64,000 bases of DNA, from positions 3,451 through 67,450 of the forward strand of contig CAZGKV010000003.1 of assembly GCA_964526305.1 (NCBI GenBank), in the 5' to 3' direction. The translations under genes were made by a program, and so were the position numbers. Positions 20,712-61,585 of this stretch are shown piece after piece. The number at the start of each line of letters is the position of its first letter. Positions within the stretch are counted from its first letter, which is position 1. Source of the DNA: an uncultured Planctomycetales bacterium (GTDB lineage Bacteria; Planctomycetota; MHYJ01; JACPRB01). The notes below the pieces were generated by a model that saw only the letters and a program-made list of their open reading frames with translations, had not been told where the DNA came from and did no database searches.

Positions 20712-20771
20712 GTTTCGGAAAGGCCGCGCACGCCGAACCTTTCGGACGTACCATCTGACAGATCCTTCGGA

Positions 20772-21323: not shown

Positions 21324-21700
21324 CCTGTTCGGCTTGCGAAGAACGGCTTCTCGATTGGCTGGACGGATCGCGCGAACCGATGGTCGAAGAGCACCTGGCC
21401 GCTTGCGCACCGTGTCGTGGGCTCTTCGAGTCGGCGCGATCCACGGCAGAGACCTTGAGATCCGCCCCGGCCGTTGTCCCACGAATCCGGCCCCGCCTCC
21501 GGTGGCGCTGGCCTGCCGCCGCGGCGGCGGTTGCGGTCATCGCCGGCGCGGGATTCCTCGCGACTCGTCGGGACGAATCCCCGCCCAAGCGCCTTCGCAT
21601 CCAAGTCGTCGATGCCGCCAATCGTGTTGAACCGGGTCACGTCGACGCTGTCTTGGACTCGATCGAAGGCGGGCCGCTGGCGGATCGAGGCTCGCGATGA
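21320..21700 (+). CDS. anti-sigma factor, zinc-finger (zf-HC2) type, single TM
   Basis: ATGA overlap with the sigma gene. CSACEERLLDWLDG...HLAACAPC matches the zf-HC2 motif. A hydrophobic segment WPAAAAAVAVIAGAGFLA follows. Confidence 0.6.
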   Translation: MTCSACEERLLDWLDGSREPMVEEHLAACAPCRGLFESARSTAETLRSAPAVVPRIRPRLRWRWPAAAAAVAVIAGAGFLATRRDESPPKRLRIQVVDAANRVEPGHVDAVLDSIEGGPLADRGSR

Positions 21701-25912: not shown

Positions 25913-25955
25913 CCTTGCACCTCCCGATAGAAGTGGGAGGGGCCGATCCGGTCTT

Positions 25956-33985: not shown

Positions 33986-34063
33986 CCGATCCTCCGTTTC
34001 CGCGCAGGGACGCTTCCTTATCTGCGCTCGGGTACGGGCCTCGGAGGAAAATGTGAACCCGGC

Positions 34064-37183: not shown

Positions 37184-37240
37184 CGGGACTCCAGACGCCG
37201 TCTTGTCTGCGCTTGCGGGGGAATCCAGAGAGAGATTCGC

Positions 37241-42000: not shown

Positions 42001-42174
42001 GACCTCGCCTATGCGCCCGGAGTCTCCCGGCCGACGACATTCTTCTTGCGCCGCCTCGATCTCCTCCGCCGACAGCCCCGCGATTTGCCGGGCCGCTTCG
42101 GCGAACTTTTCCACCGACGCGATTCCCCACGCGTCGGCCAGGAGGTTCCGATGGGGAGCTGGGAGCGAGACCAT
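39055..42174 (-). CDS. Ser/Thr protein kinase with TM segment and extensive C-terminal TPR array
   Basis: Start reassigned to ATG 42174 (MVSLPAPHRNLL..., homologous to the start of the 34064 paralog). The ORF track runs to 42240 and would overlap the divergent sigma gene. Kinase motifs and at least 12 TPR units. Confidence 0.85.
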   Translation of the reverse strand: MVSLPAPHRNLLADAWGIASVEKFAEAARQIAGLSAEEIEAAQEECRRPGDSGRIGEVLLRQGLLSPRHYLEILDRLHAPEEPGVRKVGRYRLLREIARGGMGIVYEADDPELKRRVALKVLRHGDAAPETVRRLHREASIAAQLRHANIVTVHEVGVAEGPEGEPTHFIAMDYIEGPTLAALMGEGRTAKPELMRMLEEVARAVGHAHEKGIVHRDLKPANVLVERGGRVMLTDFGLAKAESFVTKLTGTNELLGTPQYMAPEQAEGRVREVDARTDVHALGVMLYEILTGSLPFRGRTAVEVYTKIVREEPARPSSLNRTIARDVEIICLKAMSKEKNRRYRNATEFAEDLGRFRRGEPIRARPPSVFFLLRRKLARQPVLVAASIAALAGAFTTAVTVGQVVRRREFDRSRDSAQRAFAEGEWGRAMVECDRALGIRPDPALEGIREESRARLRTVEAEEEGRRRYLAFQGEWIPRLQAKIEKSRTMFYIPNANVRAHLEELEKALLEFESFAADPAFRSHSEVWATIGMGWYVLGDLARAEEALLEAAHRSPDDARVAAYLGRVYLDRSLIARLRDSEDPSPNSEIHKMLAQASRHFRRAIRGWEGATPIELHLARIHQSEDDQHHQNCRLAREGVETFGDAPGVEEFWVALAMLRHGSDRDPIVDLTKAVQIRPYAPWLFLFRGELYHEGGRNREALTDYGKSIEQDPRLYWAYTGRGVLHHQMGRWEEAISDFTAALHIRPGFSMAYAGRASARLERGDSIGALQDLEEALRFNPDYVPAYTKRARLRALLKDHAGAFLDATLALHRQPRNRYALAIRARTRVRLGDLRGALTDFAEAIESDPADPDLYHDAGLVRRGLGDFSGALRDFTGALRLRPSSARMWCLRAGTWKRQGNLDRTWTDANQSLAWNPRTAEAWFLRGYVRASRRDFSGALFDLNRAIEVDPSGADVAWLERAWVRMTIGDPRGALLDCNEAVNRRPRFAEGWIRRGFVWIALEEEDAARADFIRALSLDPRNRQARQALDQLNRKSGHR

Positions 42175-42220
42175 AGGATACGAATCAGTATACCTGGGTT
42201 CGGGATGATATGATTCGGAT

Positions 42221-42964
42221 GTGACGGGGCCGCTGGACACTTCGCTCGGGGGCGACGCGCGAGGATTCCCCTCGACCCACTGGAGCCTGCTGCGCGACGC
42301 CCGTAACCGCGACGCACCTGCCTACCGTCAGGCTTTGGAAGATTTGTGCCGGCGTTATTGGAAGCCCGCCTACTGCTTTGCCCGAGCCACTCGCGACCTC
42401 TCGAACGAGGAGGCGAAGGATGCGGTCCAGGAGTTCTTTGCGGAGTTGATCGAAGGGGACTTCTTTGCGCGATTCTCTCCGGAACGCGGTAGCTTTCGCG
42501 CCTATCTCAAGGGAGCGCTCACCCTCTTTCTCCTGGAGCGCCGGCGAAAGGCGGGAGCGCAGAAGCGCGGAGGCACGCGAAAGATTCTCGGCCTGGAGGA
42601 TTCCGACTTCACCCGCGCGGAGGCGGAGGCTCGCCGCGAAGGAGAATCGCCCGAGGCCGCCTTCGACCGGCAATGGGCCATGGACGCGATCGATCACGCC
42701 CTTCGCGATCTCGAGGAGGAGTACGGCCGATCGAATCGCGATTCCTGGTTCGCGGTCTTCCGCCGCTACGAGTGGGGAACGCCGGGCACCTATGCGGACT
42801 TGGCCCGAGAGTTCGGAATCGCGGAGTCGGAGGTCGGGTCCGCGCTCGCCCACGCGCGGCGGCGCTTCCGCGAGCTCTTCCTCGATCGCATCCGGGCCTA
42901 CACCGACAGCGAGGGGGAGGCCGCCACGGAATTGGCTTGGATTCTCTCGCTCCTGGGGCGATAA
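42221..42964 (+). CDS. ECF-like sigma-70 family sigma factor, Ser/Thr-kinase-associated type
   Basis: GTG start. Paralog of 25956-26669 (...LCRRYWKPAYCFARAT...EAKDAVQEFFAELIEGDF...TYADLAREFGIAESEVGSALAHARRRFRELF). Divergently adjacent to the kinase at 39055. Confidence 0.65.
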   Translation: MTGPLDTSLGGDARGFPSTHWSLLRDARNRDAPAYRQALEDLCRRYWKPAYCFARATRDLSNEEAKDAVQEFFAELIEGDFFARFSPERGSFRAYLKGALTLFLLERRRKAGAQKRGGTRKILGLEDSDFTRAEAEARREGESPEAAFDRQWAMDAIDHALRDLEEEYGRSNRDSWFAVFRRYEWGTPGTYADLAREFGIAESEVGSALAHARRRFRELFLDRIRAYTDSEGEAATELAWILSLLGR

Positions 42965-43030: not shown

Positions 43031-45514
43031 TTACCAGAATTTGAGCTTGCGGATCGCGCCGACGACTCCTCGCCGCACCGCGCTTGCGCCGCGCTTGGCG
43101 GCGTTCCAGGTCTCCGACGCCCGGTCGGCCGTCCAGGAACCCGCGGCCTTCATCCCCTGCCAAGTCGCCGCCAGGGCACGGTCGACGTAGGGGGTGATCT
43201 TTTCCGCGCCCCAGAGCATGACCGCGACCTGCGCGATCTCGAGCGCCCCGATGCCGACCCAACCTACCGGGCCGGCCGCAATGAGCGCGGGATAGACGGC
43301 TGCCCGGAGAGCGGCCTTGACGGGCATCATCGCCAGCATGGAAACCCCGAAGGACGTCGCATCCGTTGCGACGGCCCGGAGACTCTTCTGTCCGGAGGCG
43401 GCATGCATGATCGCCACTCCGGCATAGAGGGGCAGGGAGAAGCGCGTCACCGACGCCAGGGCGCCGCGCATCCCCAAGGCGGCTACGCCGCGGGTCGTGA
43501 CGTACTCGAGGCCCGCAAAAAGGCCGAACCCGCCGATGAAGGACGGTGAGAGCAGTCCCTTCGCGGCATCTCGGATACGGCCGGGATCGCCGTGCCAGAG
43601 GGCCTGCACCGTCTCCTTGAGCATCACCCCGCCGGCGAAGAATCCCATGCCGAGGGCACCGCGTCCCATCGCGCCCGCCGCCCGACCGAGCGCCGCTCGG
43701 TGGGGCTTCGCCGATGCGCCGCGGCCGTAGAGTTCCGGCCACCGGCTGCGGATCTCTTTCGCGAGCTCTGCGTCGCTTATCTTCGAAACCTCTTCGTGCC
43801 GGAATAGGGAGCGGAGTCCGGCCTTCTTGGCGAATGCGGCCTCGGCGCGGAAAGCCTCGACTTCACTTGCCGTCCGGCCGGTCTTGACGAATCCGTACGC
43901 ATGCGTGGCCTCGTGCACGAGCTCGACCGCAAGGCTCTTCGCCGAATTCTCGCGGACCAGGAAGACTTCGGCTCCCAGCGCCCCGGCCCCGCGGCTTCCG
44001 AGCTTCTTGGCATCGACCCAGTACACGCGGATTTCGCCCTGCCGTACCGCCTCGGCCAGATGGCGGGTGCCCGGACGATCGAGCCACCGGAGGACCTCGG
44101 CAAGCTTTTGGTCGGCGAAGGCGTCGGCCCGAGCGATCGGGGCACGTGTCCCCGTCCAGTTTTCCCACGTGCGACGGAGGCTGAGCCGGCGCCGGATCTT
44201 CGAAAGAAACGGCCGGTCCTTCGGACGCGAAGCCACTCCGTCGAACTCCGCCATTCCAAGTTCCTTGGCCTCGACGAGCTTGCCCTCGCCGTCGAAGAGT
44301 TCCATCTTGAAGCGGTCGTTGTAGCGCTTGTGTACTCGGCCGACCCGCACGATCCCCTCCGCCGTCTGGATCTCGGCGAGCTCGATCGTCGCTCCGTCGA
44401 CCTTGACTGTGCCCTCCGACGCGATGCGGACCTCGTACATCACGAAGGGATTGTCCAGGCCGCCCCACGTGTCTCCGCGGCCGGGCTCGTAGAAGTCCGC
44501 CACCCGGACTTGGGCCCCGACCGCCTTGAGCGGATCGGGAAAGTGGTTCCGCACGAACCGCTCGTAGGGGGTCCATTCCAATCCGAGCTCTCCGAGGAGC
44601 TTGCGGAACTCCGCCTCCGCCACCGTCGGGCTCCGAAGCGCATCGCGCTGGGCCTGAGTGAACTTGTGCGGCTCGATCGGCTTTCCCTTCGCCTCGAGGT
44701 GCTTGAGATACCGACCGAGGAAGCGCGCCTCGTCGTAGAGATCCTTCGGTCCCGACTGACCGCAGAACAACCGGACTTCGACCGTCGGCGGAGAGTCGGT
44801 CCACAAGTTCGTAAGGTTGACGTCCCGATAGCGCTGGCTGCCGAAGATCGGCTTCAGCGCGTCCAGGACGTCCTGATACTCGTACTTCCCTTTGGCCGCC
44901 GCCTTCCGGTCGATGGCCTCGATCACATCGATGAAGGCGTCCTGCTCGCCGCGTTCGAAGAGCGTCCGAGCGTTGTAGTGATCTCCCAGATCGTTGAAGA
45001 TCCCCTCGATGTAGGCCCGGTTGTGGATATCGACGAGGAGATTCCGCAGAAGAAGCGGGTTGTCCACGAAGATCTTCTTGTCGACGTGGATGTGTCCTCC
45101 GGTGCCCCACTTCGGATTGTCGGGGAGTTTCGTCTTGAGACCCACCGCCCACATCGCTTCATAGAGGGGGGTCATCTTCCGAACCACGTCGCTCAACTTC
45201 ATCGGGGGAGGCTGAACTTCGATGACTCCCGGATCCGTTCCGATGTTCCACTTCTGTCCTTCCCACTCGATCACATGGCCGTAGCCGTTATCTCTTCGCG
45301 AACCGGGCATGCGCGCCAGGAGCTCGTTGATGAGCGCGTCGCGCTTTGCCTCACGGGCCGTGCTGCTGACGCTCCAGTCGTCGCTGTAGATGTTGTCGTC
45401 CGTCGCCGTCGGTTCGAATCCGAAGATCAGAGCATCTTCCCGTACTTCCTGAGCTTGGGCGAGACCGAGGGATGCGACCGTGAGCAGGAGGATCCAAGAA
45501 GGGCGCCGCACCAT
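43031..45514 (-). CDS. large secreted protein, paralog A of a three-member family (shared C-terminal glycine-zipper-rich module; HExxH motif; N-terminal module with HIHVD motif)
   Basis: RBS AAGGAAG. Signal peptide MVRRPSWILLLTVASLGLAQAQE. HEATH in ...SLAVELVHEATHAYGF... The C-terminal ~250 aa (GAMGRGALGMGFFAGGVM..., SFIGGFGLFAGLEYV..., PVGWVGIGALEIAQVAVMLWGAEKITPYV..., ends AIRKLKFW) are conserved with paralogs B and C. Confidence 0.8.
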   Translation of the reverse strand: MVRRPSWILLLTVASLGLAQAQEVREDALIFGFEPTATDDNIYSDDWSVSSTAREAKRDALINELLARMPGSRRDNGYGHVIEWEGQKWNIGTDPGVIEVQPPPMKLSDVVRKMTPLYEAMWAVGLKTKLPDNPKWGTGGHIHVDKKIFVDNPLLLRNLLVDIHNRAYIEGIFNDLGDHYNARTLFERGEQDAFIDVIEAIDRKAAAKGKYEYQDVLDALKPIFGSQRYRDVNLTNLWTDSPPTVEVRLFCGQSGPKDLYDEARFLGRYLKHLEAKGKPIEPHKFTQAQRDALRSPTVAEAEFRKLLGELGLEWTPYERFVRNHFPDPLKAVGAQVRVADFYEPGRGDTWGGLDNPFVMYEVRIASEGTVKVDGATIELAEIQTAEGIVRVGRVHKRYNDRFKMELFDGEGKLVEAKELGMAEFDGVASRPKDRPFLSKIRRRLSLRRTWENWTGTRAPIARADAFADQKLAEVLRWLDRPGTRHLAEAVRQGEIRVYWVDAKKLGSRGAGALGAEVFLVRENSAKSLAVELVHEATHAYGFVKTGRTASEVEAFRAEAAFAKKAGLRSLFRHEEVSKISDAELAKEIRSRWPELYGRGASAKPHRAALGRAAGAMGRGALGMGFFAGGVMLKETVQALWHGDPGRIRDAAKGLLSPSFIGGFGLFAGLEYVTTRGVAALGMRGALASVTRFSLPLYAGVAIMHAASGQKSLRAVATDATSFGVSMLAMMPVKAALRAAVYPALIAAGPVGWVGIGALEIAQVAVMLWGAEKITPYVDRALAATWQGMKAAGSWTADRASETWNAAKRGASAVRRGVVGAIRKLKFW

Positions 45515-45577
45515 GGCTTTCTTCCTTGAGTTCTAGGCCAAGAGGACCGACCACCACACCTGCCGGTGCCCAGGGTA

Positions 45578-45594
45578 TTGCAACCGCCGTGCCA
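45578..45594 (-). promoter_or_regulatory. sigma-54 (-24/-12) promoter for paralog A
   Basis: Minus-strand sequence CTGGCACGGCGGTTGCAA, i.e. TGGCACG-N4-TTGCA, a full consensus match with correct GG/GC spacing. Lies about 54 nt upstream of the ATG of paralog A. Confidence 0.6.
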
Positions 45595-45702
45595 GGGACC
45601 GCCCGAGGGAAGCGCCTTCCGAAAACGCCCGCTTTCGGCCATCGTTGCCCGCCTCCGGGCGGCCGCCATGGCGCAATGCGTCACGCCGAAGGGAAACCGA
45701 AG

Positions 45703-45718
45703 TGGCACACCCGTTGCA
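45703..45718 (+). promoter_or_regulatory. sigma-54 (-24/-12) promoter for the 45795-52055 operon
   Basis: TGGCACACCCGTTGCA, i.e. TGGCAC-N5-TTGCA with GG and GC at consensus spacing. About 65 nt upstream of RBS/ATG 45795. Arranged divergently from the minus-strand promoter. Confidence 0.6.
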
Positions 45719-45794
45719 TTACCCCCGCTGCCCCCGGTTCCGGTGTCGTGGTGGTGCACGCCGCGGGGGAGTGGTGGATTGAGGAGAACGCCCC

Positions 45795-46688
45795 ATGTCC
45801 CGCGAACACGTATGGAAGTTCGGATGGATCGCCCCTGCTTTGCTCTTGGTCCTCCTGGCCGCACTGCTCTTGCGCCCCACGCAGGATTCCAAGGAACCCA
45901 AGCCGCGGAGCGCGACTTCGAAGATGCAGGTCCAGGAGACGACGCCTTCTCTGGAGAATCACGCTTCGCGGAACCCGGCATCCACGGAGCGGAAGCAGCC
46001 GCGACTTCGCGCCGAGGACACGGAAGAAGAGGATGAGTTGGAAGTCCACGAGAGGAGCGCCGCGGACGTCATCGCGGCCGATCCCTTGAAGTCCTCCCTC
46101 AAGACGGCTCTGACGCGGTTCGCCTCCCTTAAGTCCTACAGCTACTTGATCTCCGTGACGGTCTACGAGAACGGAAAGCCGATCCTCGAAACCAAGTCGG
46201 GCGGACAGGTAAAGGACCAGCAGATCGTGATGGGACTCACGGAAGTCCAGGGGGAAGTCTTCGAGGTGGCGAGCCGCGGTGCCGAATCGCGGATCCGCAG
46301 ACCGGGGGAGGAGTGGAGCGAGGCTGAGAACGGATGGTACGAGGCGGGAGAGGTCGACCCGCGGGCCGCCGAGATGGCCGAGGCGTGGGCCGATCCCGTC
46401 CTCGCATCCATGCCGCTCCGATCCGCCCCGACCGAAAACGTCGGCGGAGTGGACTGCAGCGCGATGACGCTCAATCTCGAAGGCGCGCTGCCGGGCGACG
46501 AGAACGTGAAGTCCGGCTCGGGCGCGAGCGCCGTCACCTTCGTCGTCGATCCCGACGGTCAGATCCGCCGGTGGCGACTGACGATGGAGATGAACCAGGA
46601 CGGAAAGAAAATGAAGACCGTCGCGGAGGCGGACTTCTCGGGTTTCGATGCTCCTTGGACCGTTCCTCTTCCGGAGTGGATGCAATGA
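45795..46688 (+). CDS. N-terminally membrane-anchored hypothetical protein, translationally coupled to paralog B
   Basis: RBS GAGGAG. TM helix WIAPALLLVLLAALLL followed by an acidic, low-complexity region and a ~180-aa C-terminal domain. Stop overlaps the start of the next gene (ATGA). Confidence 0.6.
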   Translation: MSREHVWKFGWIAPALLLVLLAALLLRPTQDSKEPKPRSATSKMQVQETTPSLENHASRNPASTERKQPRLRAEDTEEEDELEVHERSAADVIAADPLKSSLKTALTRFASLKSYSYLISVTVYENGKPILETKSGGQVKDQQIVMGLTEVQGEVFEVASRGAESRIRRPGEEWSEAENGWYEAGEVDPRAAEMAEAWADPVLASMPLRSAPTENVGGVDCSAMTLNLEGALPGDENVKSGSGASAVTFVVDPDGQIRRWRLTMEMNQDGKKMKTVAEADFSGFDAPWTVPLPEWMQ

Positions 46689-49528
46689 AACGCTGGACGC
46701 TTCTCTTCTGGCTGGTCCTCGCGGTCCCCGCGACCGCGCAGGACATCGAGAATCCGGAGTACCTGCGCCGAGCCGCGTGGGGATTGGCGAAGCAGAACCG
46801 GGCCAAGTCGCTCTACCTCTTCCTCGAGAACCAGTTCCCGACCTTTACGGGACTCGCGGAGGCGGCCGGACTTCCCGAGGCGCTGGACGGCGGGCTCTCG
46901 CTTCCGTCGTTCCGGAAGAGCTTCCACCAGAAGTTGAAGTCCTATAAGCCTTCCTCCGACCAACCCTCGGCCAAGGCGATGAAGGCGCTCTTCGACGCGC
47001 TCCACGGAGTCCTGACCGTCTTCCCGCTCCAGCCCCCGGCGCCCGGGGAGTCCGTCCGAGCGCTCGTACAGAACCGCGGCCCCCCGGAGGCGCTCCTCGA
47101 AAAGTTCTACAACGTCAGCGAGACCTATCTTGCGGGCTGGGACAAGCTCAAGACGATCTCGGTCAAGTCCGTTCCGGGAGAACTCGTGTGGTTCAACCCC
47201 GATCTCGCGATCCCCGAACTCGGGATCAAACCCGGCGTTCCTCTCACGGACGCGCAAAAGGCCCTCGTCCTGAAGTTCTTCTCGGTGCGGGTCACGAACG
47301 ACGCCGCCGCGAAGATCGGCGAAGCCTCCTATCCCTCCGATGTCGGACGCGCGGTGAACCCCCGCTCGGGCGTGCTCACGATCGTCGACGGCAACGACGG
47401 CAAGCTTCTCCCCGACCTCACCCTCAAGGGCACCGGAAGCAATTCGGATCCGGCCTCGACCTCCGAATGGTCGGGCAAGCTCGACGTCGGGGAAGCGATC
47501 TTCGACTCCGAGGTCTCTCTCTCCTTGATGCGAGAAGGGGTTCGAATCTACACGCCCGTGGCCGTCATCGCGGATCCGGCGAACCCCGCCAAGGGAGTCT
47601 CCGTCCGGGCCTCGATGACCTTCCTTCGCCATAGCCACATCTTGACGAACGGCTGGGGAAGCGTCACGCCGGAGGATGCGAAATTCCTCATCGAGAAGAT
47701 CCGGCAGAACGCGACCCTCGCCGAGGGACAGGAATTCGATCTGCGGGAATGGGCGAAGGACGTTCTCCCGAGGCTCGCGGGCCGAAACGCAGGGCTGATG
47801 TCGGGCCTCGGAGTCCGGCACGGCTCGGCGACCGACAGCAACATCGGCGTAGGCGAGCAAGTGGACTTCGGCGAGCCTTCCCTGGGAAACAAGCCATCGG
47901 AATCGCAAAAGGACTGGCACTGGAAGGCGCTCGAAAACATCACGAACGCGGCGAATCTCTCTCTTCCGGAAGGACAGAAGATCGACCTCGCCGCCTCCAA
48001 GGTCCTCTTCGAGGCCGAATTCTCCTCCTCGGTCGCTCGGGTCATCGACGAGGGGCTGCGACTCCGCGTCGGCGCCGAAAACCTCTCCCTCATGGACGAG
48101 TCCCACCGGAAGCGGTTGTACGAGGGGTACCTCGAGTCGCTCCGAGACTTGTCCGAGGCTCAGCTGCGGCAGGAAGTGGTCCGGCTGGGGCTCGAGAAGG
48201 TCGCCGTCGCCAAGACCCTCACGGCGGATCAGGCGCGTACGAAGATCCGGGACGCCTTCCGGAACGCGGACGTCTCGAAGCTCGAGCCCCTGCTCCGGCT
48301 TCTCGGGGTCGCGGAGTTCCGCGCCCGCGAGCTGGCCCTTCGGGGCGAGCCCCTCGCCAAGCTCCGCACGATGGCGCGGGATCGCGGGATCCGGAGTCCG
48401 GAAGGGCTCAACCGTTCTCAGCTCGCGCGGGAGATCGCCCTCTGGGGAGGAGCGGTTTCGCGACCGCGTTCGAACGAGCCGGAGCTCACGCGCCGGCTAC
48501 AGGGGGCCCTGAATTCCGCGATGCGGGCCGCCGACGGGATGGACCCCGCGCGGCGCGGCACGCGCGTCGAAGCGACGCTTCGCCGGCTCATGGCGGCGGA
48601 ACCCGGACTCTACTTCAACGTGAAGATCGCCGAACTCAACGGAAAGCGATTCGTATACGAGATCGGCGGACGGCGCGCGCTCCTCCCCGGAGGTCGCGTC
48701 ATCGCGGAGGCGGACGTTCTGAGACTGAAGCCCGGCCTGGCCCTGGAACTCGGGGCGGAGTTCGATTCCGCCAAGGTCGATCTCGCCTGGGAGATCAAGA
48801 GCTCGAGGCGGCCGATGCGTCCCTCGCAGGGAGAGCTCTATCGCTCCGTCTTCGGCCGCGCCCCGATCGAGATGCATCCGACGGAAGTTGCGGCCCGGCC
48901 GCGGGGCCGAAGTTCGGCTCGAGCGGCGATCGGTCAAGGAGCGGTCGGTCTCGGCATCTTTGCGGCCGGCTTCCTCGTGAAGGAAGCGGTTCAGGGGCTC
49001 GCCTCGGGCGACACCCAGCGGATCCGGAACGCGTTCCGTCACCTGAAGTCCCCCTGGTTCGCCGGGGGATTCGCGGTCTTTAGCGGCGTGGAATGGGCGG
49101 CGTCGAAGGCCTTGGGGGGGGCGAAAGGAGCGTGGGGCGCAGTCGGGCGCTTCGCGCTGCCCATCTACGCCGGCGTTTCGATTCTGCACCTCGTCCAGGG
49201 GAAGCGCGACCTCAAGTCGATCGCGACGGAGGCGACCTCCTTCGCCGTCTCCGCCCTGGCGATGCAGCCGGTGATGCACGCCATCCGCGGCGCGCTCTAT
49301 CCGGCCCTGGCCGCGGCCCCGCCGTGGGGCTGGGTCGGCATCGGTGCGATCGAGATCGCCAACGCCGCCGTGATGCTCTTCGGCGCGGAGAAGATCTCTC
49401 CGTATGTCGATCAGGCGCTCACGGCGACATGGAACGGAGCGAAAGCCGGTACCGCCTGGGTCAAGAAGGGCGCGACCGCTGTGGGACATAGGGTGATGGC
49501 CTCGGTTTCAAGACTCAAGTTTTGGTGA
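46685..49528 (+). CDS. large secreted protein, paralog B (shared C-terminal module; HExxH position degenerated to GAEFD; contains Rho-N-like helix-hairpin segment)
   Basis: Start taken at ATG 46685 (signal peptide MKRWTLLFWLVLAVPATAQD); the ORF track begins at 46334 inside the previous gene. C-terminal ...GQGAVGLGIFAAGFLVKEAVQG...PPWGWVGIGAIEIANAAVML...VSRLKFW. Where A and C have HEATH, B has ...LALELGAEFDSA... Confidence 0.8.
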   Translation: MKRWTLLFWLVLAVPATAQDIENPEYLRRAAWGLAKQNRAKSLYLFLENQFPTFTGLAEAAGLPEALDGGLSLPSFRKSFHQKLKSYKPSSDQPSAKAMKALFDALHGVLTVFPLQPPAPGESVRALVQNRGPPEALLEKFYNVSETYLAGWDKLKTISVKSVPGELVWFNPDLAIPELGIKPGVPLTDAQKALVLKFFSVRVTNDAAAKIGEASYPSDVGRAVNPRSGVLTIVDGNDGKLLPDLTLKGTGSNSDPASTSEWSGKLDVGEAIFDSEVSLSLMREGVRIYTPVAVIADPANPAKGVSVRASMTFLRHSHILTNGWGSVTPEDAKFLIEKIRQNATLAEGQEFDLREWAKDVLPRLAGRNAGLMSGLGVRHGSATDSNIGVGEQVDFGEPSLGNKPSESQKDWHWKALENITNAANLSLPEGQKIDLAASKVLFEAEFSSSVARVIDEGLRLRVGAENLSLMDESHRKRLYEGYLESLRDLSEAQLRQEVVRLGLEKVAVAKTLTADQARTKIRDAFRNADVSKLEPLLRLLGVAEFRARELALRGEPLAKLRTMARDRGIRSPEGLNRSQLAREIALWGGAVSRPRSNEPELTRRLQGALNSAMRAADGMDPARRGTRVEATLRRLMAAEPGLYFNVKIAELNGKRFVYEIGGRRALLPGGRVIAEADVLRLKPGLALELGAEFDSAKVDLAWEIKSSRRPMRPSQGELYRSVFGRAPIEMHPTEVAARPRGRSSARAAIGQGAVGLGIFAAGFLVKEAVQGLASGDTQRIRNAFRHLKSPWFAGGFAVFSGVEWAASKALGGAKGAWGAVGRFALPIYAGVSILHLVQGKRDLKSIATEATSFAVSALAMQPVMHAIRGALYPALAAAPPWGWVGIGAIEIANAAVMLFGAEKISPYVDQALTATWNGAKAGTAWVKKGATAVGHRVMASVSRLKFW

Positions 49529-49532
49529 TGCG

Positions 49533-52055
49533 ATGATGCTGAAGCTGCTCTTGGCGTTTCTGATCTCCACGGACCATCCGATCCTCTCGGACGCCCATCT
49601 GGAGGCGCTGATCCAGAACTACGGTCAGTCGATCCCGATCAAGACCGCCGAGGGATTGGGCGAGGCGCTCTACTGGGCGAACCTCGTCCAGAAGGACGCG
49701 ACGACCGTCGAGGTCACCGACAAGCTGATTCGGGACGTCGTGGCCGTCCGCCGATTTCACCAGCGCGCGCGCTACAACGTCGGCGACCGGCTGATCGTGC
49801 GCGCTTCGGAAGGGGGACTGTCCCCGCGCGCGGAGATCGCGACGGTGAATCCGGACGGGACGTACGACGTCATCGTGTGGGATAAGCTGAAGTCGTTCCT
49901 CCTTCCCAATACCAGCGCCGACGCCACCCGGGCGATGATCGACGAGGCGACGGGCGAGCTGGCCAAGCCGGGGAAGACGCAGGTCGAGGTCACCGACCCG
50001 GTAACCGGCGTGAAAAAGAAGGTTTGGATGGAGCGGCCGTGGCTGGAGCGTCCGAATCTTCGAACGGTCAAGATGACCCATACGGAGATCGCGGCGCTCA
50101 ACGGGCCGCCCAACATCGCGTTCCGCCAGCGGTACAACGTCTATGGCTACATCGTGGACGCCTTCACCCCCGGCTACGATCCGGTGCTCGAAAAGCGCCT
50201 CGCCAAGGCGGTGAAGGTCCTCGACCAGATGGTAGCGAAGGGCGAGCTCGACCTTCGCTGGCCGGAGAATCCCGCCGAGCAGCCGAAGTTCATGGAAAAG
50301 CTCCTCCGGGCCCAGCGGAAGCTCATCCGCACCGTGTGGTCCCAGAACGAGATGTCCTACCTCCGCGGGGACGAGGCCAGCAAGCGCTGGAACGAGGCGA
50401 TGTCCGATCCGACGCTCAAGGAGGGGTACTCGCACAAAGTCGGAGCTCAGCTCAAGGCGCGCGTCGGGGTTTGCAGCGATCAGACCGCCGGCATTACGTC
50501 GGTGCTTCGGGAAATCGGCCGTCGAGCGGGCTTCGAGATCCGTCCCGTGAGCGGCCGCACGCTCGACGGGGGAGGCCACGCCTTCGCCGTAATCCGGCTG
50601 GCGGACGGCAAGCTGCATCTGATCGATCCGTCCTGGCATTCGGTCTCGAGCCACACGAAGAACATCGCGTTGGAGTCGATCGATTTCGCGACCTTCGACA
50701 AGCGTTGGTGGTCCAACCGAGACCTCGGCTCCTTCGTCGAGACGTCGGTGGAGACGCCGCGGAAGGCCGGTCGCGGATTTACCGACACGCAAGATGCGCT
50801 CTTCCGCGCCACGGCCAAGAAGGGCCTGGGCGACGTCGCGGCTCGCCCGATCGAGCGGACGTGGATGGAAGAGATGCTGGAGCGGTACGAGGTCTACGAG
50901 CCCGCGGAGCCGAATGCGGTCCGCTGGCGCCGAGTGCCGGAATACGCCGTCTGGGCCGAGCCGATCACGGATTCGAAGATCGGCGAAGCGGTGGACATCA
51001 TGCGGGAACATGGCGCCGGCAAGTTGGCCGATCTGATCCTCCGCGGGGACATTCGGGTGTACTGGGTCGAGCCGCGAAGCCTGGGTTCGGCGGGGGCGAT
51101 CACCGACGGCCGGTTCATCTACGTGACTCGCGGGGCGACGGGCAAGAAGCTCGCCCTCGAGCTCGTCCACGAGGCGACGCATGCCGAAGGATTCCTCCGT
51201 ACGGGCCGTCCGGCGTCCGAGGTACAGGCCTTCCGCGCCGAGGCGGCGTTCGCCCAACGGGCCGGCGTGAAGTCCGTGTTCCGTCACGACAAGATTTCCC
51301 GGATGAGCGACGCCGAACTGGCGCGGGAGATCGAGCGGCGCTGGCCCGATCTGTACACGTCGGCCCGCGAGGGAGTTCCCGCCCGCGGTCACCGGGCTCG
51401 CATCGCAAGCGCCGCGAAGACCGTCGGTCGCGGGGCCATGGGCGCCGGGATCTTCGCCGCAGGGTTCCTCGTCAAGGAGACGATCCAGGGGATCTGGCAC
51501 GGAGACTGGGGCCGCATCAAGAGCGCGGTCCATGAGCTCAAGAGCCCGTGGTTCCTGGGCGGTTTCGCCGTCTTCAGCGGAGTGGAGTACGCCTCGGCGA
51601 AGATGCTCTCCGGAACCAAGGGGATGTGGGGCTCCGTCGGTCGCTTCGCCCTGCCGCTCTATGCGGGCGTCGCCCTCCTCCAGCTCGCCCAAGGCAAGCG
51701 CGACCTGAAGTCGATCGCGACGGAAGCGACGTCCTTCGCCGCTTCCGCCCTCGCGATGATGCCCGTGATGAACGCGATCCGGGGATCGCTCTATCCGGCC
51801 TTGGCCGCGGCTCCGCCGTGGGGCTGGGTCGGCATCGGCGCGATCGAAATCGCCAACGCGGCCGTGATGCTGTGGGGCGCCGAGAAAATGGCCCCCTACG
51901 TCGATAAGGCGATCACCGCGACCGTGAGCGCGACCAAGAAGGCCGCCTCGTGGGTCGCCGAAAAGGCTACGGGAGTCTGGCACGACACCGTGAGCGGATT
52001 CAACTCGGTGCGTCGCGGCGCGGTTTCGATGGCGCGGCGCCTCAAGTTCTGGTAA
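49533..52055 (+). CDS. large protein, paralog C (transglutaminase-like Cys/His/Asp module, HExxH motif, shared C-terminal module)
   Basis: Starts 5 nt after the stop of paralog B. GVCSDQTAGITSVLREIGRRAGFEIRPVSG...GGGHAFAVIRLADGKLHLIDPSW fits the transglutaminase-core/papain-like C...H...D signature. LELVHEATHAEGF. C-terminal ...GRGAMGAGIFAAGFLVKETIQG...PPWGWVGIGAIEIANAAVML...ARRLKFW. Confidence 0.8.
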   Translation: MMLKLLLAFLISTDHPILSDAHLEALIQNYGQSIPIKTAEGLGEALYWANLVQKDATTVEVTDKLIRDVVAVRRFHQRARYNVGDRLIVRASEGGLSPRAEIATVNPDGTYDVIVWDKLKSFLLPNTSADATRAMIDEATGELAKPGKTQVEVTDPVTGVKKKVWMERPWLERPNLRTVKMTHTEIAALNGPPNIAFRQRYNVYGYIVDAFTPGYDPVLEKRLAKAVKVLDQMVAKGELDLRWPENPAEQPKFMEKLLRAQRKLIRTVWSQNEMSYLRGDEASKRWNEAMSDPTLKEGYSHKVGAQLKARVGVCSDQTAGITSVLREIGRRAGFEIRPVSGRTLDGGGHAFAVIRLADGKLHLIDPSWHSVSSHTKNIALESIDFATFDKRWWSNRDLGSFVETSVETPRKAGRGFTDTQDALFRATAKKGLGDVAARPIERTWMEEMLERYEVYEPAEPNAVRWRRVPEYAVWAEPITDSKIGEAVDIMREHGAGKLADLILRGDIRVYWVEPRSLGSAGAITDGRFIYVTRGATGKKLALELVHEATHAEGFLRTGRPASEVQAFRAEAAFAQRAGVKSVFRHDKISRMSDAELAREIERRWPDLYTSAREGVPARGHRARIASAAKTVGRGAMGAGIFAAGFLVKETIQGIWHGDWGRIKSAVHELKSPWFLGGFAVFSGVEYASAKMLSGTKGMWGSVGRFALPLYAGVALLQLAQGKRDLKSIATEATSFAASALAMMPVMNAIRGSLYPALAAAPPWGWVGIGAIEIANAAVMLWGAEKMAPYVDKAITATVSATKKAASWVAEKATGVWHDTVSGFNSVRRGAVSMARRLKFW

Positions 52056-52110
52056 CGCAGATCCGATCCCTCAATCCGAGGCGGGGCCTGCTTGTGCGGG
52101 CCCCGCTCCC

Positions 52111-53589
52111 TTATTCGGGGCCGACGATCCCGTACTTCTCCATGCGCCGGCCGAAGGCTTTGCGGTCCAGGTTGAGGGAGCGCGCGGCCTTGGAGACGTT
52201 GCCTCCGGCCGCCGCGAGCGCATCTTGGATGCGCTTCCGCTCGAGCCCCTCGACCTCGCCGGGGAGACCGGCCTCCGGAACGTCGCGCCGGAGGACCCGG
52301 GGAGAGATCGCGTCGACGGAGAGGACGTCTCCGCAGAGAAGCGCCGCGCGCTTGAGTTCGTTCACCAGCTCGCGTACGTTCCCCGGCCACGGATAGGCCG
52401 CCAGCGTTCGCAAGGCCGCCTCCTCCACTCGAGGGGGTTTGCGACCGATGCTTTGGCACACCCTCCCGAGATGGTGTTCCACGAGTCGCGGCAGGTCCTC
52501 GAGGCGCCGGCGGAGCGGCGGCAGCTCGAGATGGATGACGTTCAGGCGGTGGAAGAGATCTTCGCGGAACTCTCCCTCGCGAATCATCGATTCCAGATCC
52601 TGATTCGTCGCGCTCACGATCCGGACGTCGACGCGGATGGGTCCGCGCCCGCCGACGGGGCGGATCTGTTGGTCCTCCAGGACCCGCAGGAGCTTGGCCT
52701 GCATCCCCGCGCTCATGTTCTCGACCTCGTCGAGAAAGAGCGTGCCGCCGTCCGTGATCTCGAAGAGCCCCTTCTTGTCCCCCGCCGCGCCGGTGAAGGC
52801 GCCTTTGACGTGGCCGAAGAGCTCGGATTCGAGGAGCGTCTCGTTGAACTCCGCGCAATTGACCGCGAGGAATGGGCCGTCGCGGCGCGGGCTGTGGAGA
52901 TGGATTTCCCGCGCGGTGAGTTCCTTCCCCGAACCGGTCTCTCCCTGGATCAGGACGGGGAAGTCGACCTGAGCGACGCGTTCGATCATCGCAAAGACCT
53001 GGCGCATCGCGGGCGAGGCGCCGACCATCGAGCCCATGCCGTGTTCGATTTCGCGGCGGGTTTCCCGGAGCTGTTCCGAGAGCGCGGCGACGCGGTTCTT
53101 GAGCTCCCATCTCTCGACGGCCGCGGCGAAGGGGGTGCGAGCGCGGGTGGCGAAGGCGACGCAGAGATCGAGGTCTTCGGAGAAAAAGCGCGCCCGATCC
53201 GCGGAGACGTCGAGGTAGATCACTCCCGCGGGGCCGGGGATCGGAACGCACAGAAGCGACTTGGCGTCCATGGACTGGATGCTCTGCCGATCGCGGAGAA
53301 GGGCCTCCTCGTGCGTGTCCGCGATGAGAGCCGGGCGGCCCGATTCCAAGACCTGCTCGACCACGCCGAAACTGATGCGGAGGGTCTCCCCCGCCAGGAG
53401 CGCCGGATCGATGGAGCGCGAGGCCACGAAGCGAGGGGCCCGGGCGGGATCGACGAGGATCATGAAGCCCCGTTCGGCCCGGACGGCGCTCACCAATTCC
53501 CCCAGAGCGGCGTCGAGCATCCGTTCCGGTTCGGGCCCCGCCTCGAGCATTCGGTCCAGGACTCCGAGGAGTCGGTCGCGAAGCTCCAT
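52111..53589 (-). CDS. sigma-54-dependent transcriptional activator (bEBP) with N-terminal GAF-like sensor, AAA+ sigma-54-interaction domain and C-terminal Fis-type HTH
   Basis: Start chosen at MELRDRLL (ATG 53589); the ORF track extends further, to 53766. Walker A GETGSGKE; GAFTGA sigma-54 contact motif; ESELFGH; arginine-finger region; C-terminal ...GNVSKAARSLNLDRKAFGRRMEKYGI. Confidence 0.8.
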   Translation of the reverse strand: MELRDRLLGVLDRMLEAGPEPERMLDAALGELVSAVRAERGFMILVDPARAPRFVASRSIDPALLAGETLRISFGVVEQVLESGRPALIADTHEEALLRDRQSIQSMDAKSLLCVPIPGPAGVIYLDVSADRARFFSEDLDLCVAFATRARTPFAAAVERWELKNRVAALSEQLRETRREIEHGMGSMVGASPAMRQVFAMIERVAQVDFPVLIQGETGSGKELTAREIHLHSPRRDGPFLAVNCAEFNETLLESELFGHVKGAFTGAAGDKKGLFEITDGGTLFLDEVENMSAGMQAKLLRVLEDQQIRPVGGRGPIRVDVRIVSATNQDLESMIREGEFREDLFHRLNVIHLELPPLRRRLEDLPRLVEHHLGRVCQSIGRKPPRVEEAALRTLAAYPWPGNVRELVNELKRAALLCGDVLSVDAISPRVLRRDVPEAGLPGEVEGLERKRIQDALAAAGGNVSKAARSLNLDRKAFGRRMEKYGIVGPE

Positions 53590-53725
53590 GGGGGTCGGAT
53601 CATAGCACCGGCCTCCGAGCCGCGCCACCCATAGAAGGCCCATATGGGGACCCATACGTCCGTACACTTTTGCATTGACACGGCCCGCGACGTTGGCACA
53701 ATAGCCTCCCCTCGGAGGGAATCGG

Positions 53726-56707
53726 ATGGACGGGAAAGCCCTGGGACAGCTCGCCCTCGTTCGCAAGGGCGTCGGACACGACCAGCTCCGCGAGGCGCTG
53801 GAGACCCAGTCGCGCTCCGTCCCGCGCCGCCCCCTCGGCCAAATCCTGGTCGAGAGCGGCTACCTCACCGCCTCGGATCTCGAGGACCTCCTTCGCGCTC
53901 AATCGAAACTCCGCCAGAGTCGCGAGGAGCGGTTCGGGGAGGTTGCGGTGCAGATGGGGTTCCTCACCCCGGAACGCCTGGAGCCCGCCTTGGAGGAGTG
54001 GCGTCGCCTGGTGGCCTCCGGCGCGCCCGTACAGCTCGGCCAGTTCCTTCTCCGCAGAGGATTGCTCACGCTGGACCAACTCCTCGAGGTCCTCCAGCGA
54101 CAAAAGCGCGTCATCATGCGCTGTCCTCGGTGCGCGCGCAAATTCACCGTCCCCACGGGCAAGAAGGGGCCGACCTGTCTGGGCTGTCAGACTCCCCTCT
54201 CGATGCTCCTGGAGGTTACGGATCCCGGGGCGGAGCTGCGCCGCTCGAAGCAGGAGGACTCCGGAGGTCTCAAGCGGCTCGGGAAGTACCAGATCCTGGC
54301 TCCGCTGGGTCAAGGAGCCAAGGGGATGGTCTTCAAAGCGCGGGATCCGGAGCTGGAGCGGATCGTCGCCGTCAAGGTCCTCAAGCAACTCGAGGGCGCT
54401 CGGCCCGACCAGGTCCAACGCTTCGTTCGCGAGGCGCGATTGGCGGGAAAGCTCCGCCATCCGAACATCGTGCGCGTCCACGACATCGGCTCCGACGGCC
54501 CTCTGCACTTCTTCGCCATGGATTTCGTGCCGGGCTCCGCTCTCGACGCCGTCCTGAAACGCAAGCCGCTGGGGATTCGCCGCTCCGCCGAGCTCGTGGC
54601 CAAGGTGGCGGAGGCGGTCCACTACGCCCATTCGGAAGGAATCGTCCATCGCGACCTCAAACCCGGGAACATCATGCTCGACGACAAGGACGAGCCCGTC
54701 GTAATGGACTTCGGACTGGCCAAATTGCTGACGGGATCCGACGTCCTCACCAAGACGGGCGCGGCGATGGGGACGCCGTACTACATGTCGCCCGAGCAGG
54801 CCCGCGGACGAGGCCGGGCCGTCGACGCCCGGAGTGACGTCTTCGCGCTCGGGGTGATCCTGTATGAATGCGTCGCGCGACGTCTGCCTTTCTTGGGCGA
54901 GAGCGTCGCCGAGATCGCGACCAAGATCGCGCAAGAGGATCCGCCCGCTCCGCGGTCGTTCGTGGCGCAAATTCCGCGGGATCTGGAATGGATCATCCTC
55001 AAGGCCCTGGAAAAAGAGCCCGAGCGCCGCTTCCAAAGCGCCCAGGAGCTCGCCGAGGATCTCCGGCGCTTCCTCGAGGGCGAGGCCGTCCGCGCTCGCC
55101 CCACCGGAATCTTCTACCGGATGCGCAAGATGGCTCGGCGGCGAGAGGCGCGCGTGGCCGCTCTCGTCCTCGCCTTTTCGACGGTATTGGCGGCGACGGC
55201 GGTGGCGGTTTCCCGCCCCTCCGCGCGCGATGCCCGCGCCGTCCCTCTGAGCCCGGCGTCCGGCTCCCACCTGGCCGAACGGCAGCGAAAGGTCGATGGA
55301 ACTCTCTACGCCCTCTGGGAAGAGGCGCGTTCGTATCTCCACGGAATCTATACCGCTCGAGAACTCTCCGATACGGAGCTCGCGCAGTTCCGGACGCGCC
55401 TCGCCGCCTACCGGGACCGATTCCGCGACTCCGGAGCCCTCGATCCGGACGGAGGCACCACGCTGGCGAAATACTTCCGAGCCCGGCTCCATCTCGAGAC
55501 GATGGAACACGACCGCGCCTTGGCCGAGCTCGAGGAGGCGATCCGGATCGAATCCTCCCGGAGCGGTCCGAATCTCGGCCTCTACTATCTCTTGCAGGCG
55601 AACGTCTACATGGAGCTCCAGATCTGGGTCCTGGGCGAGGACGGGGAGCGGGCGCTTCTCCTCGAGAAGGCGCGCGAATCCCTGGCTCGAGCCCGGGGAC
55701 ACGCCGTACCGAGCGAGGAGGAGGATACCGCGGCCTTGGCGACGGCCATTCAGGAGGCGACCGAGGGTCGATACGGCGCGGCGGTGGAGCGCCTCACGAA
55801 ACTGTACGAATCGCGCCGCAGGCCCGAGTTTCTGTGGGCCGTGGGGGCCGTTCACTTCACGGCGGCGGTGGCGAATCGCGACACCCTTCCGGTCCACCTT
55901 GAGCGCGCGATTCAGGCCCAGGAGCAGCTCCTGGCCACGATGCCGCACTATGCCAAGGCCCGTCTCGCGCGCGCCCACGCCCAGGTGCTCGCCATGCGCG
56001 GGACTCCCGCGATCCAGGACGCGACCGCCGCGATTCGTCTCCTTCCCGGCGTGTCCGACGGTTATCTCGTGCGGGCGACGGCGCTTTCTCTCGCCGGTCG
56101 CGCCGAAGAGGCGCTCGCGGATTGCGAGAAGGCGCTCGCCCTCGATTCGCGCGACGATTACGCCTACATGCAGCGCTCGACCGCGCTCGTCATGCTCGGT
56201 CGACTCGAAGAAGCGCAGCGCGACGCGGCCAAGGCGATCGAGCTTCATCCCGAAGGGGTGGAAGGCTACGTCGCCCGTGGGACGATTTATCTCCTGGAAG
56301 GGCGTATGGAGGAGGCCGAGAAGGACATCGAGGTCGTCTTCCGGCGAAGTCCCGGCAGCGTCAACGCCCACACGATGGGCGTCACCCTCACCATGATGCG
56401 AGGCCACTTCGACGAGGCGGAGAAGCGCTGCGACGAGTGGCTCCGGGCCGATCCCCATTCCCCGCTCGCCTACGGCCTGCGGGCGATGATCTACTATCGC
56501 CAGAATCGGCAGGAGAATGCGCTCAAGGACGCGGAACACGCGATCGCCCTATCGGAGGAAACCCCTCACGCGCGGCTCGTCCGCGGCCTCATCGCGTTCG
56601 AGCGGGGGGACTTCCGCACCGCGCGCAACGATCTCACCTTCTGCAAGGCTTATCCCCAGTTCCAGGAGATCGTGAAGGACGTGCTCCCGAAACTTCCCAC
56701 GCCGTAG
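53726..56707 (+). CDS. Ser/Thr protein kinase with N-terminal region, zinc ribbon, TM segment and C-terminal TPR array
   Basis: RBS GGAGGG. CPRCARKF...CLGCQ; kinase motifs (GQGAKGMVFKA, HRDLKPGN, DFG, SPE); TM helix VAALVLAFSTVLAATAVAV; TPR units. Confidence 0.85.
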   Translation: MDGKALGQLALVRKGVGHDQLREALETQSRSVPRRPLGQILVESGYLTASDLEDLLRAQSKLRQSREERFGEVAVQMGFLTPERLEPALEEWRRLVASGAPVQLGQFLLRRGLLTLDQLLEVLQRQKRVIMRCPRCARKFTVPTGKKGPTCLGCQTPLSMLLEVTDPGAELRRSKQEDSGGLKRLGKYQILAPLGQGAKGMVFKARDPELERIVAVKVLKQLEGARPDQVQRFVREARLAGKLRHPNIVRVHDIGSDGPLHFFAMDFVPGSALDAVLKRKPLGIRRSAELVAKVAEAVHYAHSEGIVHRDLKPGNIMLDDKDEPVVMDFGLAKLLTGSDVLTKTGAAMGTPYYMSPEQARGRGRAVDARSDVFALGVILYECVARRLPFLGESVAEIATKIAQEDPPAPRSFVAQIPRDLEWIILKALEKEPERRFQSAQELAEDLRRFLEGEAVRARPTGIFYRMRKMARRREARVAALVLAFSTVLAATAVAVSRPSARDARAVPLSPASGSHLAERQRKVDGTLYALWEEARSYLHGIYTARELSDTELAQFRTRLAAYRDRFRDSGALDPDGGTTLAKYFRARLHLETMEHDRALAELEEAIRIESSRSGPNLGLYYLLQANVYMELQIWVLGEDGERALLLEKARESLARARGHAVPSEEEDTAALATAIQEATEGRYGAAVERLTKLYESRRRPEFLWAVGAVHFTAAVANRDTLPVHLERAIQAQEQLLATMPHYAKARLARAHAQVLAMRGTPAIQDATAAIRLLPGVSDGYLVRATALSLAGRAEEALADCEKALALDSRDDYAYMQRSTALVMLGRLEEAQRDAAKAIELHPEGVEGYVARGTIYLLEGRMEEAEKDIEVVFRRSPGSVNAHTMGVTLTMMRGHFDEAEKRCDEWLRADPHSPLAYGLRAMIYYRQNRQENALKDAEHAIALSEETPHARLVRGLIAFERGDFRTARNDLTFCKAYPQFQEIVKDVLPKLPTP

Positions 56708-56830
56708 CCGCCCGATTTCGGGCGCATCCGGTCGCCTCTGGGCAGACCACAGACTCGGCACGAGGGAGAGAGTCCTGGCCTCTCGATTGCTCCCGACAGG
56801 GCACCGGGACTCAATTCTTCGGAGGGACCT

Positions 56831-60229: not shown

Positions 60230-61585
60230 GTGGATCACCTGATCGAGGTCACCCGGACCCTCTGCCCCGACTGCCTCCAGGTGGTCGACGGCCAGGTCGT
60301 CGAACGCGAGGGGAAGGCGTACCTGCGCCGGCGGTGCCCCACCCACGGGATCCGCGAGGGAATCGTGTCCGGCGATGTCGCGATGTACACGGAGGCGGCC
60401 CAGTACAACAAGCCGGGCACGATGCCCGTCAAATTCGGCGCCCCGGTACGGAACGGATGCCCGTACGACTGCGGTCTCTGCGCCGAGCACAAGCAACATA
60501 CCTGCCTCGCGCTCATCGAGGTCACGAACGCCTGCAACATGCGGTGTCCGACCTGCTTCGCTTCCAGCGGCGTCGGCGACTATCTCGACCTCGACACGAT
60601 CACCCGGATGATCGAGACCTTCGTTTCGCACGAAACCAACCCCGAAGTGCTCATGCTCTCGGGCGGCGAACCCACCATCCATCCCGAGATCCTCCGGATC
60701 GTCGAGATCGCGAAGGAGCGGGGGGTCAAGTGGGTGGTCATCAACACCAACGGGAAGAAAATCGCGGGCAACGAGGCGTTCGCGCGCCGGCTGGCCGAGC
60801 GGAAGGTGTGGCTCTACCTGCAGTTCGACGGATTCAAGCCGGAGACCGGACTTCGCATCCGCGGCGAGAGAGATCTGCTGGAGGACAAGCTCCGCTGCGT
60901 GGAAACGTGCGAAAAGGTCGATCTCCCCGCGATCGCCGTCATGACCGTCGAGGAAGGCGTGAACGACGACGAAATCGGAGCCGTCTGCGAATTCGTGCTT
61001 CGGTCGCCGATCCTGAAGGGGGTCTGTTATCAACCCGTGTTTCATGCCGGCCGCCACGACGGCCATTTCAATCCGATGACCCGAATCACGCTCGCGGACG
61101 TCGTGCACCGGTTGGTCGAGCAGACGAACGGGAAATTCCGAATCCGAGACTTCATTCCCGATCCCTGTCCCTACCCCACGTGCGGTTCGACGACCTACGT
61201 GTACGCGGACCCCGAGAAACCGATGGTGCTCCCGCGGATGGTGGACGTGCACACCTACCTCAATTACGCGCAGAATCGGACGGTGCCCGATGCGGCGCGA
61301 TTCCTCCGCGAACGGCTGGAAGGACTTTTCTCGGCGAGCGCGCTTCCGACGACGCCCGGGATCGTCGAGCGCTTCTGCGATTCCTGCGGGCTCTCGCTCG
61401 TCGAACTGGCGGCCGACGCGCCGAAGCGGCTCAAGATGATCAAGGTGAAGCCGTTCATGGACGCCTGGACGTTCGATCTCAAGCGCATCATGAAGTGTTG
61501 CGTCCACGAGGTCTCGACCGACGGCCGGCTGGTTCCGTTCTGCGCGTGGAACAACATCCCTCAGTACCGGGCCGCGCACCGATGA
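60230..61585 (+). CDS. radical SAM enzyme with N-terminal zinc-ribbon and C-terminal Cys-rich (SPASM/twitch-like) region
   Basis: GTG start after RBS GGAGAGAG. N-terminal CPDC...CPTHG. Radical SAM cluster motif CNMRCPTC, with SGGEPT and INTNG blocks. C-terminal Cys cluster CPYPTCG...CDSCG...CCVHEVSTDGRLVPFC. Confidence 0.75.
   Translation: MDHLIEVTRTLCPDCLQVVDGQVVEREGKAYLRRRCPTHGIREGIVSGDVAMYTEAAQYNKPGTMPVKFGAPVRNGCPYDCGLCAEHKQHTCLALIEVTNACNMRCPTCFASSGVGDYLDLDTITRMIETFVSHETNPEVLMLSGGEPTIHPEILRIVEIAKERGVKWVVINTNGKKIAGNEAFARRLAERKVWLYLQFDGFKPETGLRIRGERDLLEDKLRCVETCEKVDLPAIAVMTVEEGVNDDEIGAVCEFVLRSPILKGVCYQPVFHAGRHDGHFNPMTRITLADVVHRLVEQTNGKFRIRDFIPDPCPYPTCGSTTYVYADPEKPMVLPRMVDVHTYLNYAQNRTVPDAARFLRERLEGLFSASALPTTPGIVERFCDSCGLSLVELAADAPKRLKMIKVKPFMDAWTFDLKRIMKCCVHEVSTDGRLVPFCAWNNIPQYRAAHR

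Follow-up and report, generated by a model that had tools for sequence, protein, structure and literature searches.

The subject of this work is a gene for a bacterial enhancer-binding protein (bEBP) and its relation to three neighbouring paralogous genes, A, B and C, in a 64-kb stretch of DNA (contig CAZGKV010000003.1; hereafter the window, to which all coordinates refer) from an uncultured Planctomycetales bacterium. The bEBP gene (52111-53589, minus strand, stop codon included) encodes a product of 492 amino acids (AAs). On one side it converges with paralog C, which ends at 52055 and leaves a gap of 55 bp (52056-52110) to the bEBP stop codon; on the other side it is divergent from a Ser/Thr kinase gene that starts at 53726, across an intergenic region of 136 bp. 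An earlier note on this DNA had described both flanks; the coordinates of the convergent gap agree exactly, and the divergent kinase is confirmed. The paralogs are arranged around two back-to-back sigma-54 promoters, PA and PB, which lie 6.4-8.0 kb from the bEBP gene.

The bEBP and its functional motifs

The product was predicted earlier to combine a GAF-like sensor, an AAA+ domain with GAFTGA and a Fis-type helix-turn-helix (HTH), and Pfam searches and motif positions bear this out. The GAF sensor domain (residues 21-150; 53140-53529, minus strand; Pfam GAF_2, E 5.7e-08, and GAF, E 7.5e-07) is followed by the AAA+ sigma-54 interaction domain (residues 188-354; 52528-53028, minus strand; Sigma54_activat, PF00158, E 3.9e-70), a lid (AAA_lid_14, residues 360-434) and the DNA-binding Fis-type HTH (residues 447-486; 52132-52251, minus strand; HTH_8, PF02954, E 2.7e-11). 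The protein carries Walker A (GETGSGKE, residues 216-223), ESELFGH (254-260), the GAFTGA loop that contacts sigma-54 (263-268; window positions 52786-52803), Walker B (LFLDEV, 284-289) and FREDLFHRL (341-349), as well as sensor I SATN and WPGNVREL. Every functional motif, whether catalytic or in contact with sigma-54, is intact. It is the sole bEBP of the window according to a six-frame motif scan and a search with a back-translated GAFTGA pattern.

Judged by its domain order (GAF, AAA+, Fis HTH), the protein classes as a generic one-component GAF bEBP of NifA-type architecture, a conventional regulator whose arrangement matches specialist expectation. Its best solved structural match is NifA (9qq6_C, E 1.8e-82, residues 8-484), with which it shares the same three domains over the full length. 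None of the NCBIfam equivalog cut-offs was reached: the best model, NifA TIGR01817, gives 362.8 bits against a cut-off of 528.85, the NorR model NF003451 gives 319.9 against 476 and aligns only from residue 122, and the FhlA model NF011958 gives 259.2 against 830.

A public protein of identical sequence (P0001) has 479 AAs because it was called from the second ATG at 53550 and not from 53589, which leaves the start codon uncertain by 13 codons. An extended -10-like element, TGCTATGAT (53599-53607, minus strand), is a candidate promoter of the bEBP gene itself, recognised as a consensus match by reading the sequence. It lies 9 nt upstream of the ATG at 53589, therefore the bEBP transcript would be nearly leaderless or translation would begin at 53550.

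Two back-to-back sigma-54 promoters

PA (TGGCACGGCGGTTGCA, 45579-45594, minus strand; exact consensus 45580-45594) lies 65 nt upstream of the start codon of paralog A, and PB (TGGCACACCCGTTGCA, 45703-45718, plus strand; exact consensus 45703-45717) lies 77 nt upstream of a small open reading frame (ORF) that heads the B-C operon. The exact consensus TGGCAC-N5-TTGC occurs twice in the window against 0.01 expected, and none of 100 shuffled sequences contained such sites. A weighted scan of the window found no other sigma-54 candidate of comparable quality, near the bEBP gene or elsewhere; the next-best candidates are clearly weaker, and the two that were checked (60492-60507 and 56776-56791) fall within coding regions. 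The earlier statement that these are the only full-consensus sigma-54 sites, 6-8 kb off the bEBP gene, thus stands. The promoters are placed back to back, 108 bp apart (45595-45702), and have the extended core GTTGCA(A/T)TACCC in common; otherwise only the -24/-12 core can be aligned between the two promoter regions. The start codons behind PA and PB are preceded by the Shine-Dalgarno sequences AAGGAAG and GAGGAG, respectively. Transcription would be expected to begin near 45569 (minus strand) from PA and near 45728 (plus strand) from PB.

The spacer between the promoters had been described as a dyad region. It does contain one dyad of 9+9 bp, CCGAAAACG-CC-CGCTTTCGG (45619-45638), which is unique in the window and is the sole, weak candidate for an enhancer site; 84 dyads of this quality are found in 64 kb, which amounts to 0.14 expected by chance per 108 bp, and the region holds no repeated site. 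A 10-bp palindrome (45664-45673) is paired symmetrically with the dyad around the midpoint of the spacer.

The putative target genes

Paralog A (43031-45514, minus strand; 827 AAs) is the putative target of PA. The putative PB operon (45795-52055, plus strand) consists of the small ORF (45795-46688, plus strand; 297 AAs), paralog B (46685-49528, plus strand; 947 AAs), the start of which overlaps the small ORF in an ATGA, and paralog C (49533-52055, plus strand; 840 AAs), which follows B after a gap of 4 nt. None of the three paralogs has a Pfam or NCBIfam match above threshold. By eye, all three have a hydrophobic, signal-peptide-like N-terminal leader; they all finish in LKFW and have in common a C-terminal module of about 200 AAs that is rich in Gly and Ala, hydrophobic and predicted to be helical. 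A HEATH (HExxH-like) segment precedes this module in A and C. Paralog B has a weak similarity to SelO (E 2e-7 in a pairwise comparison with a relative that contains a SelO domain), and sub-threshold hints make paralog C weakly transglutaminase-like and paralog A weakly amidoligase-like.

The C-terminal module is very rare. A word-index search and a first genome scan gave no matches, an exhaustive HMMER search yielded only 72 relatives among 1.84 billion representatives, and of 185,579 species genomes scanned only one, a Planctomycetota metagenome-assembled genome (MAG), contains the module. In these relatives it is joined to SelO, starch synthase, GH77, trehalose synthase, TGase-elicitor, CAP and M28 domains, and members of the family often stand in long tandem arrays, one of which lies downstream of a T2SSF-like gene. 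The small ORF is not similar to the gene ahead of the array in a related metagenome locus (L009). An AlphaFold2 model of the module, built from three sequences, reached a pLDDT of 42. The family, with its diverse enzyme heads on one C-terminal module, is more unusual than the bEBP.

Proposed activation of PA and PB by the adjacent bEBP

We propose that the bEBP activates PA and PB. This is the best explanation of the locus and a plausible one, to which we give a probability of about 0.55, the argument being one of co-localisation. The bEBP would bind through its C-terminal HTH within or beside the 108-bp spacer; a signal perceived at the GAF domain would free the ATPase, and the bEBP hexamer so formed would remodel the sigma-54 holoenzyme at both promoters. 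As a result both paralog A and, in the opposite direction, the small ORF-B-C operon would be switched on. An inhibitory role of the GAF domain is suggested by analogy with PexR of Myxococcus xanthus and NorR of Escherichia coli, both GAF-AAA+-HTH proteins in which GAF autoinhibits the ATPase until the signal arrives (PMC12754779, PMC2941729).

Directly beside the bEBP gene stands the one operon of the window that is sigma-54-driven, and both promoters are correctly oriented toward start codons. In E. coli, fhlA encodes a GAF-type bEBP and stands at the distal end of one of two divergent sigma-54 operons (hyc/hyp) that have an intergenic control region in common. The position of the bEBP gene at the distal end of one of two divergent sigma-54 operons with such a region is alike, but fhlA is co-oriented with hyp whereas the bEBP gene is convergent, and the targets are unrelated. 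Co-localisation is a recognised predictor of the targets of one-component bEBPs: in Desulfovibrio vulgaris, 10 of the 13 one-component EBPs are co-localised with their sigma-54 promoters, and the set includes EBPs that serve two divergent sigma-54 operons from a common upstream region (PMC4641369). DVUA0100, for the type III secretion system operons, and the regulator of the orange-protein complex are of this kind; there, however, motif and linkage are conserved across genomes, whereas no orthologous locus is found for the bEBP described here.

Several observations weigh against the proposal. The bEBP gene is convergent with the operon and follows its last gene, 6.4 kb away from the promoters; such a convergent, distal position is less typical than a divergent or in-operon one. 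Dyad and repeat searches of the PA-PB spacer found no significant repeated enhancer dyad or half-site; PexR, for comparison, binds dyad repeats upstream of its sigma-54 promoters (PMC12754779). The NifA-type motif TGT-N10-ACA is absent from 45400-45900 and nif genes are absent from the window, which sets the locus apart from that of NifA. A search of 5.8 billion proteins revealed no orthologue among the matches listed, the only identical protein being the bEBP itself and the best non-self match being 46% identical; therefore a conserved linkage between bEBP and paralogs cannot be shown. Genomes of lineages such as the Planctomycetota carry dozens of bEBPs, hence another one could serve PA and PB. 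The related loci described in the next section add to these points: in two contigs of a related organism (L002 and L003) the surroundings of the paralog-A orthologue are free of bEBP genes for about 9-10 kb in each direction, and neither a bEBP nor an exact sigma-54 consensus was found in the more distant family loci from the Planctomycetota MAG (L004-L006) and from metagenomes (L009-L014).

According to the principal alternative the adjacency is coincidental, PA and PB use a bEBP encoded elsewhere, and the bEBP at 52111-53589 controls sigma-54 promoters outside the window. Such an arrangement would agree with the convergent, distal gene position, with the lack of an identified enhancer repeat, with the orthologue of A in L003 that has a sigma-54-like element and no bEBP nearby, and with the size of the protein family: at least 8000 homologues were scored, all with E <= 1e-30, many of them from Planctomycetota. 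We nevertheless consider coincidence rather unlikely, as the sole bEBP stands beside the sole sigma-54 promoters in 64 kb, and as co-localisation is the rule for one-component EBPs and is seen in two of three homologue loci, the third (L016) being in favour of coincidence. The earlier claim that the bEBP activates the paralog locus is partly supported: the adjacency and the uniqueness of both the bEBP and its candidate sites hold, and neither conserved synteny nor a significant enhancer repeat was found.

Comparative loci

One metagenome contig (L001; JGI 3300025157, contig Ga0209399_10000459) contains an identical bEBP, the kinase and the downstream genes, and stops within paralog C, probably because the C-terminal module, repeated among the paralogs, interrupted the assembly. 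Searches for GAFTGA-coding DNA and the sigma-54 consensus covered further related loci (L002-L006 and L009-L014); no GAFTGA-coding DNA was present, and sigma-54 sites, all with one mismatch, were found only in L002, L003 and L011. L002 and L003 contain only one gene of this family, a paralog-A orthologue at 59-62% identity. Its neighbours are a C39-ABC exporter with HlyD, a Ser/Thr kinase, an ECF-like (extracytoplasmic function) sigma factor and, by eye, a toxin-antitoxin-like pair and a tail-fibre-like protein. A sigma-54-like element with one mismatch, CGGCACGGGAATTGC, precedes the likely start codon of this orthologue by 15 nt. Since about 0.5 one-mismatch sites are expected per locus, such an element just before the start is unlikely to be there by chance; as a promoter it would give rise to an mRNA with almost no leader. 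Should the element be real, A would have kept its dependence on sigma-54 with no activator gene beside it.

The intergenic elements with one mismatch, CGGCACGGGAATTGC among them, are found at 9075-9089 and 17053-17067 of L003 and at 9912-9926 of L002, all on the plus strand; another of them, TGGCACGCCGTTCGC, is followed after about 40 nt by a small plus-strand gene with the ribosome-binding site GGAAGGAGG.

In the window, a Ser/Thr kinase with TPR repeats (39055-42240, minus strand) and an ECF-like sigma factor (42209-42964, plus strand) adjoin paralog A. A similar pair lies near the A orthologue of L003 (14089-16923 and 17632-18387, both minus strand); the kinase domains are 50% identical and the sigma factors 36% over the full length. 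Thus the pairing of a kinase with an ECF-like sigma factor is conserved beside A, whereas no bEBP is found near the orthologue.

Three loci with bEBP homologues of the same architecture (L015, L016 and L017) were examined. Two of the three have an exact TGGCAC-N5-TTGC at 0.4-1.7 kb downstream from the bEBP gene, in an intergenic position upstream of the next gene: at 8004-8018 in L015, where that gene begins at 8057, and at 9241-9255 in L017 (TGGCACAACATTTGC), 50 nt before a Kelch beta-propeller gene at 9305. L016 has no sigma-54 site near its bEBP homologue. Of the other relatives, the best non-self match adjoins a cysH-like gene and P0003 a gene for a protein of 1588 AAs. The comparison that the earlier note had recommended, of the bEBP-paralog adjacency in related genomes, does not confirm the link between the two, and its outcome is neutral to slightly negative.

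The input signal of the bEBP

GAF domains of bEBPs bind metabolites in NifA and FhlA. In NorR and PexR the domain uses metal centres (PMC2941729, PMC12754779); the metal site of the H2O2-sensing PexR is formed by H102, H120, C122 and D140 and its targets are ahpC and katB (PMC12754779). Neither ahpC nor katB was identified among the scanned ORFs of the window. An alignment of the bEBP with 21 homologues shows a conserved GAF core, with AERGF, a near-invariant C114 in LCVP, and Y125 and D127, and no pattern that can be assigned to a known ligand. The GAF domain alone has no PDB match by sequence, and it fits no characterised sensor or ligand-binding GAF. The small-molecule signal that the earlier note had proposed is unsupported in either direction; a GAF ligand of this kind is one of several possible inputs.

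Phospho-signalling is an equally good input, because a kinase gene is the neighbour of the bEBP gene, because most of the homologues carry a phosphothreonine-binding domain and because a bEBP and a kinase form an operon in L017. The neighbouring kinase (53726-56707, plus strand; Pfam Pkinase, E 9.8e-48) has C-terminal TPR repeats, assigned to TPR families of Pfam, and is a candidate signalling partner. Instead of, or besides, a GAF ligand it could act as the input by phosphorylating the bEBP or a partner and so controlling the ATPase. This explanation concerns the signal and not the target and is compatible with the activation of PA and PB by the bEBP. The two genes diverge over 136 bp, GAF fits no characterised ligand-binding domain, and in most close homologues of the bEBP, which are Planctomycetota proteins, an FHA (phosphothreonine-binding) domain stands N-terminal to GAF. 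These FHA-GAF-AAA+-HTH activators are its nearest relatives (37-43% identity over more than 90% of the length among the matches listed) and are uncharacterised; the bEBP differs from them in that Pfam finds no FHA domain in it. In L017 (6001-10579) the gene of P0032, a GAF bEBP of the same architecture and 40% identity, overlaps a Pkinase-PEGA gene in one operon, which is followed by the exact sigma-54 consensus. The combination of bEBP, Ser/Thr kinase and sigma-54 promoter thus occurs a second time. Two of the three homologue loci, however, have no kinase adjoining the bEBP gene, and with six Ser/Thr kinase genes in the window such a neighbour is not rare and is not significant in itself; we regard control by the kinase as rather unlikely. 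A literature search for a GAF bEBP linked with a Ser/Thr kinase found no paper with both. Distinctly more doubtful is the combined idea that the bEBP and the divergent kinase form one module, in which phosphorylation and not a GAF-bound metabolite would lead to the bidirectional sigma-54 expression of an undescribed, modular family with signal peptides.

The kinase gene is faced by a sigma-70-like promoter, TTGACA-N16-CACAAT with a TG extension (53675-53702, plus strand; 10 of 12 matches, 0.1 expected in shuffles); the TTGACA-N17-ACAATA reported earlier is real and is the same site shifted by one base. It is very improbable that the bEBP acts mainly on the promoter region of its own and the kinase gene, as a sigma-70-type repressor or a dual regulator like PexR at ahpC. 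The sigma-70-like promoter does lie inside the 136-bp spacer adjoining the bEBP gene, and PexR shows that one GAF bEBP can combine the repression of a sigma-A promoter with the activation of sigma-54 promoters (PMC12754779), but the bEBP is built for sigma-54 activation, as its GAFTGA and all its ATPase motifs are intact, and neither dyad repeats in the 136-bp spacer nor a sigma-54 site upstream of the kinase were seen.

In the N-terminal part of the kinase (53726-54300, plus strand) a repeat of about 24 residues, LGxxLVxxGxLxxxxLxxxLxxQ, occurs four times, ahead of a CxxC...CxxC zinc ribbon. This part has only a weak PatA_N/DUF4388 match in Pfam, and we presume that the repeat resembles the c-di-GMP-binding MshEN/T2SSE_N motif.

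Other features of the window

The 55-bp gap between paralog C and the bEBP gene contains a GC-rich hairpin of 11-12 bp (52081-52106; -28.6 kcal/mol, z -3.1 against shuffles), which, despite the lack of a T tract, probably terminates transcription in both directions; a terminator scan that requires a T run found none.

The window is unusually dense in signalling genes. The six Ser/Thr kinases include those at 9689-12316, 22613-26077, 34064-37240, 39055-42240 and 53726-56707, with an RCC1-repeat neighbour context at 31742-34063; genes for ECF-type sigma factors lie at 20712-21323 and 42209-42964, and a MucB/RseB-like gene at 21631-22608. No rpoN was identified among the window ORFs scanned, and Rfam and tRNA scans of the window found nothing.

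Implications

If the bEBP does control PA and PB, it would give an experimental handle on an uncharacterised and very rare family of paralogs: a constitutively active bEBP from which GAF has been deleted should switch the locus on. The locus would then also be a further case, from a poorly sampled lineage, of one bEBP that serves two back-to-back sigma-54 promoters 108 bp apart.

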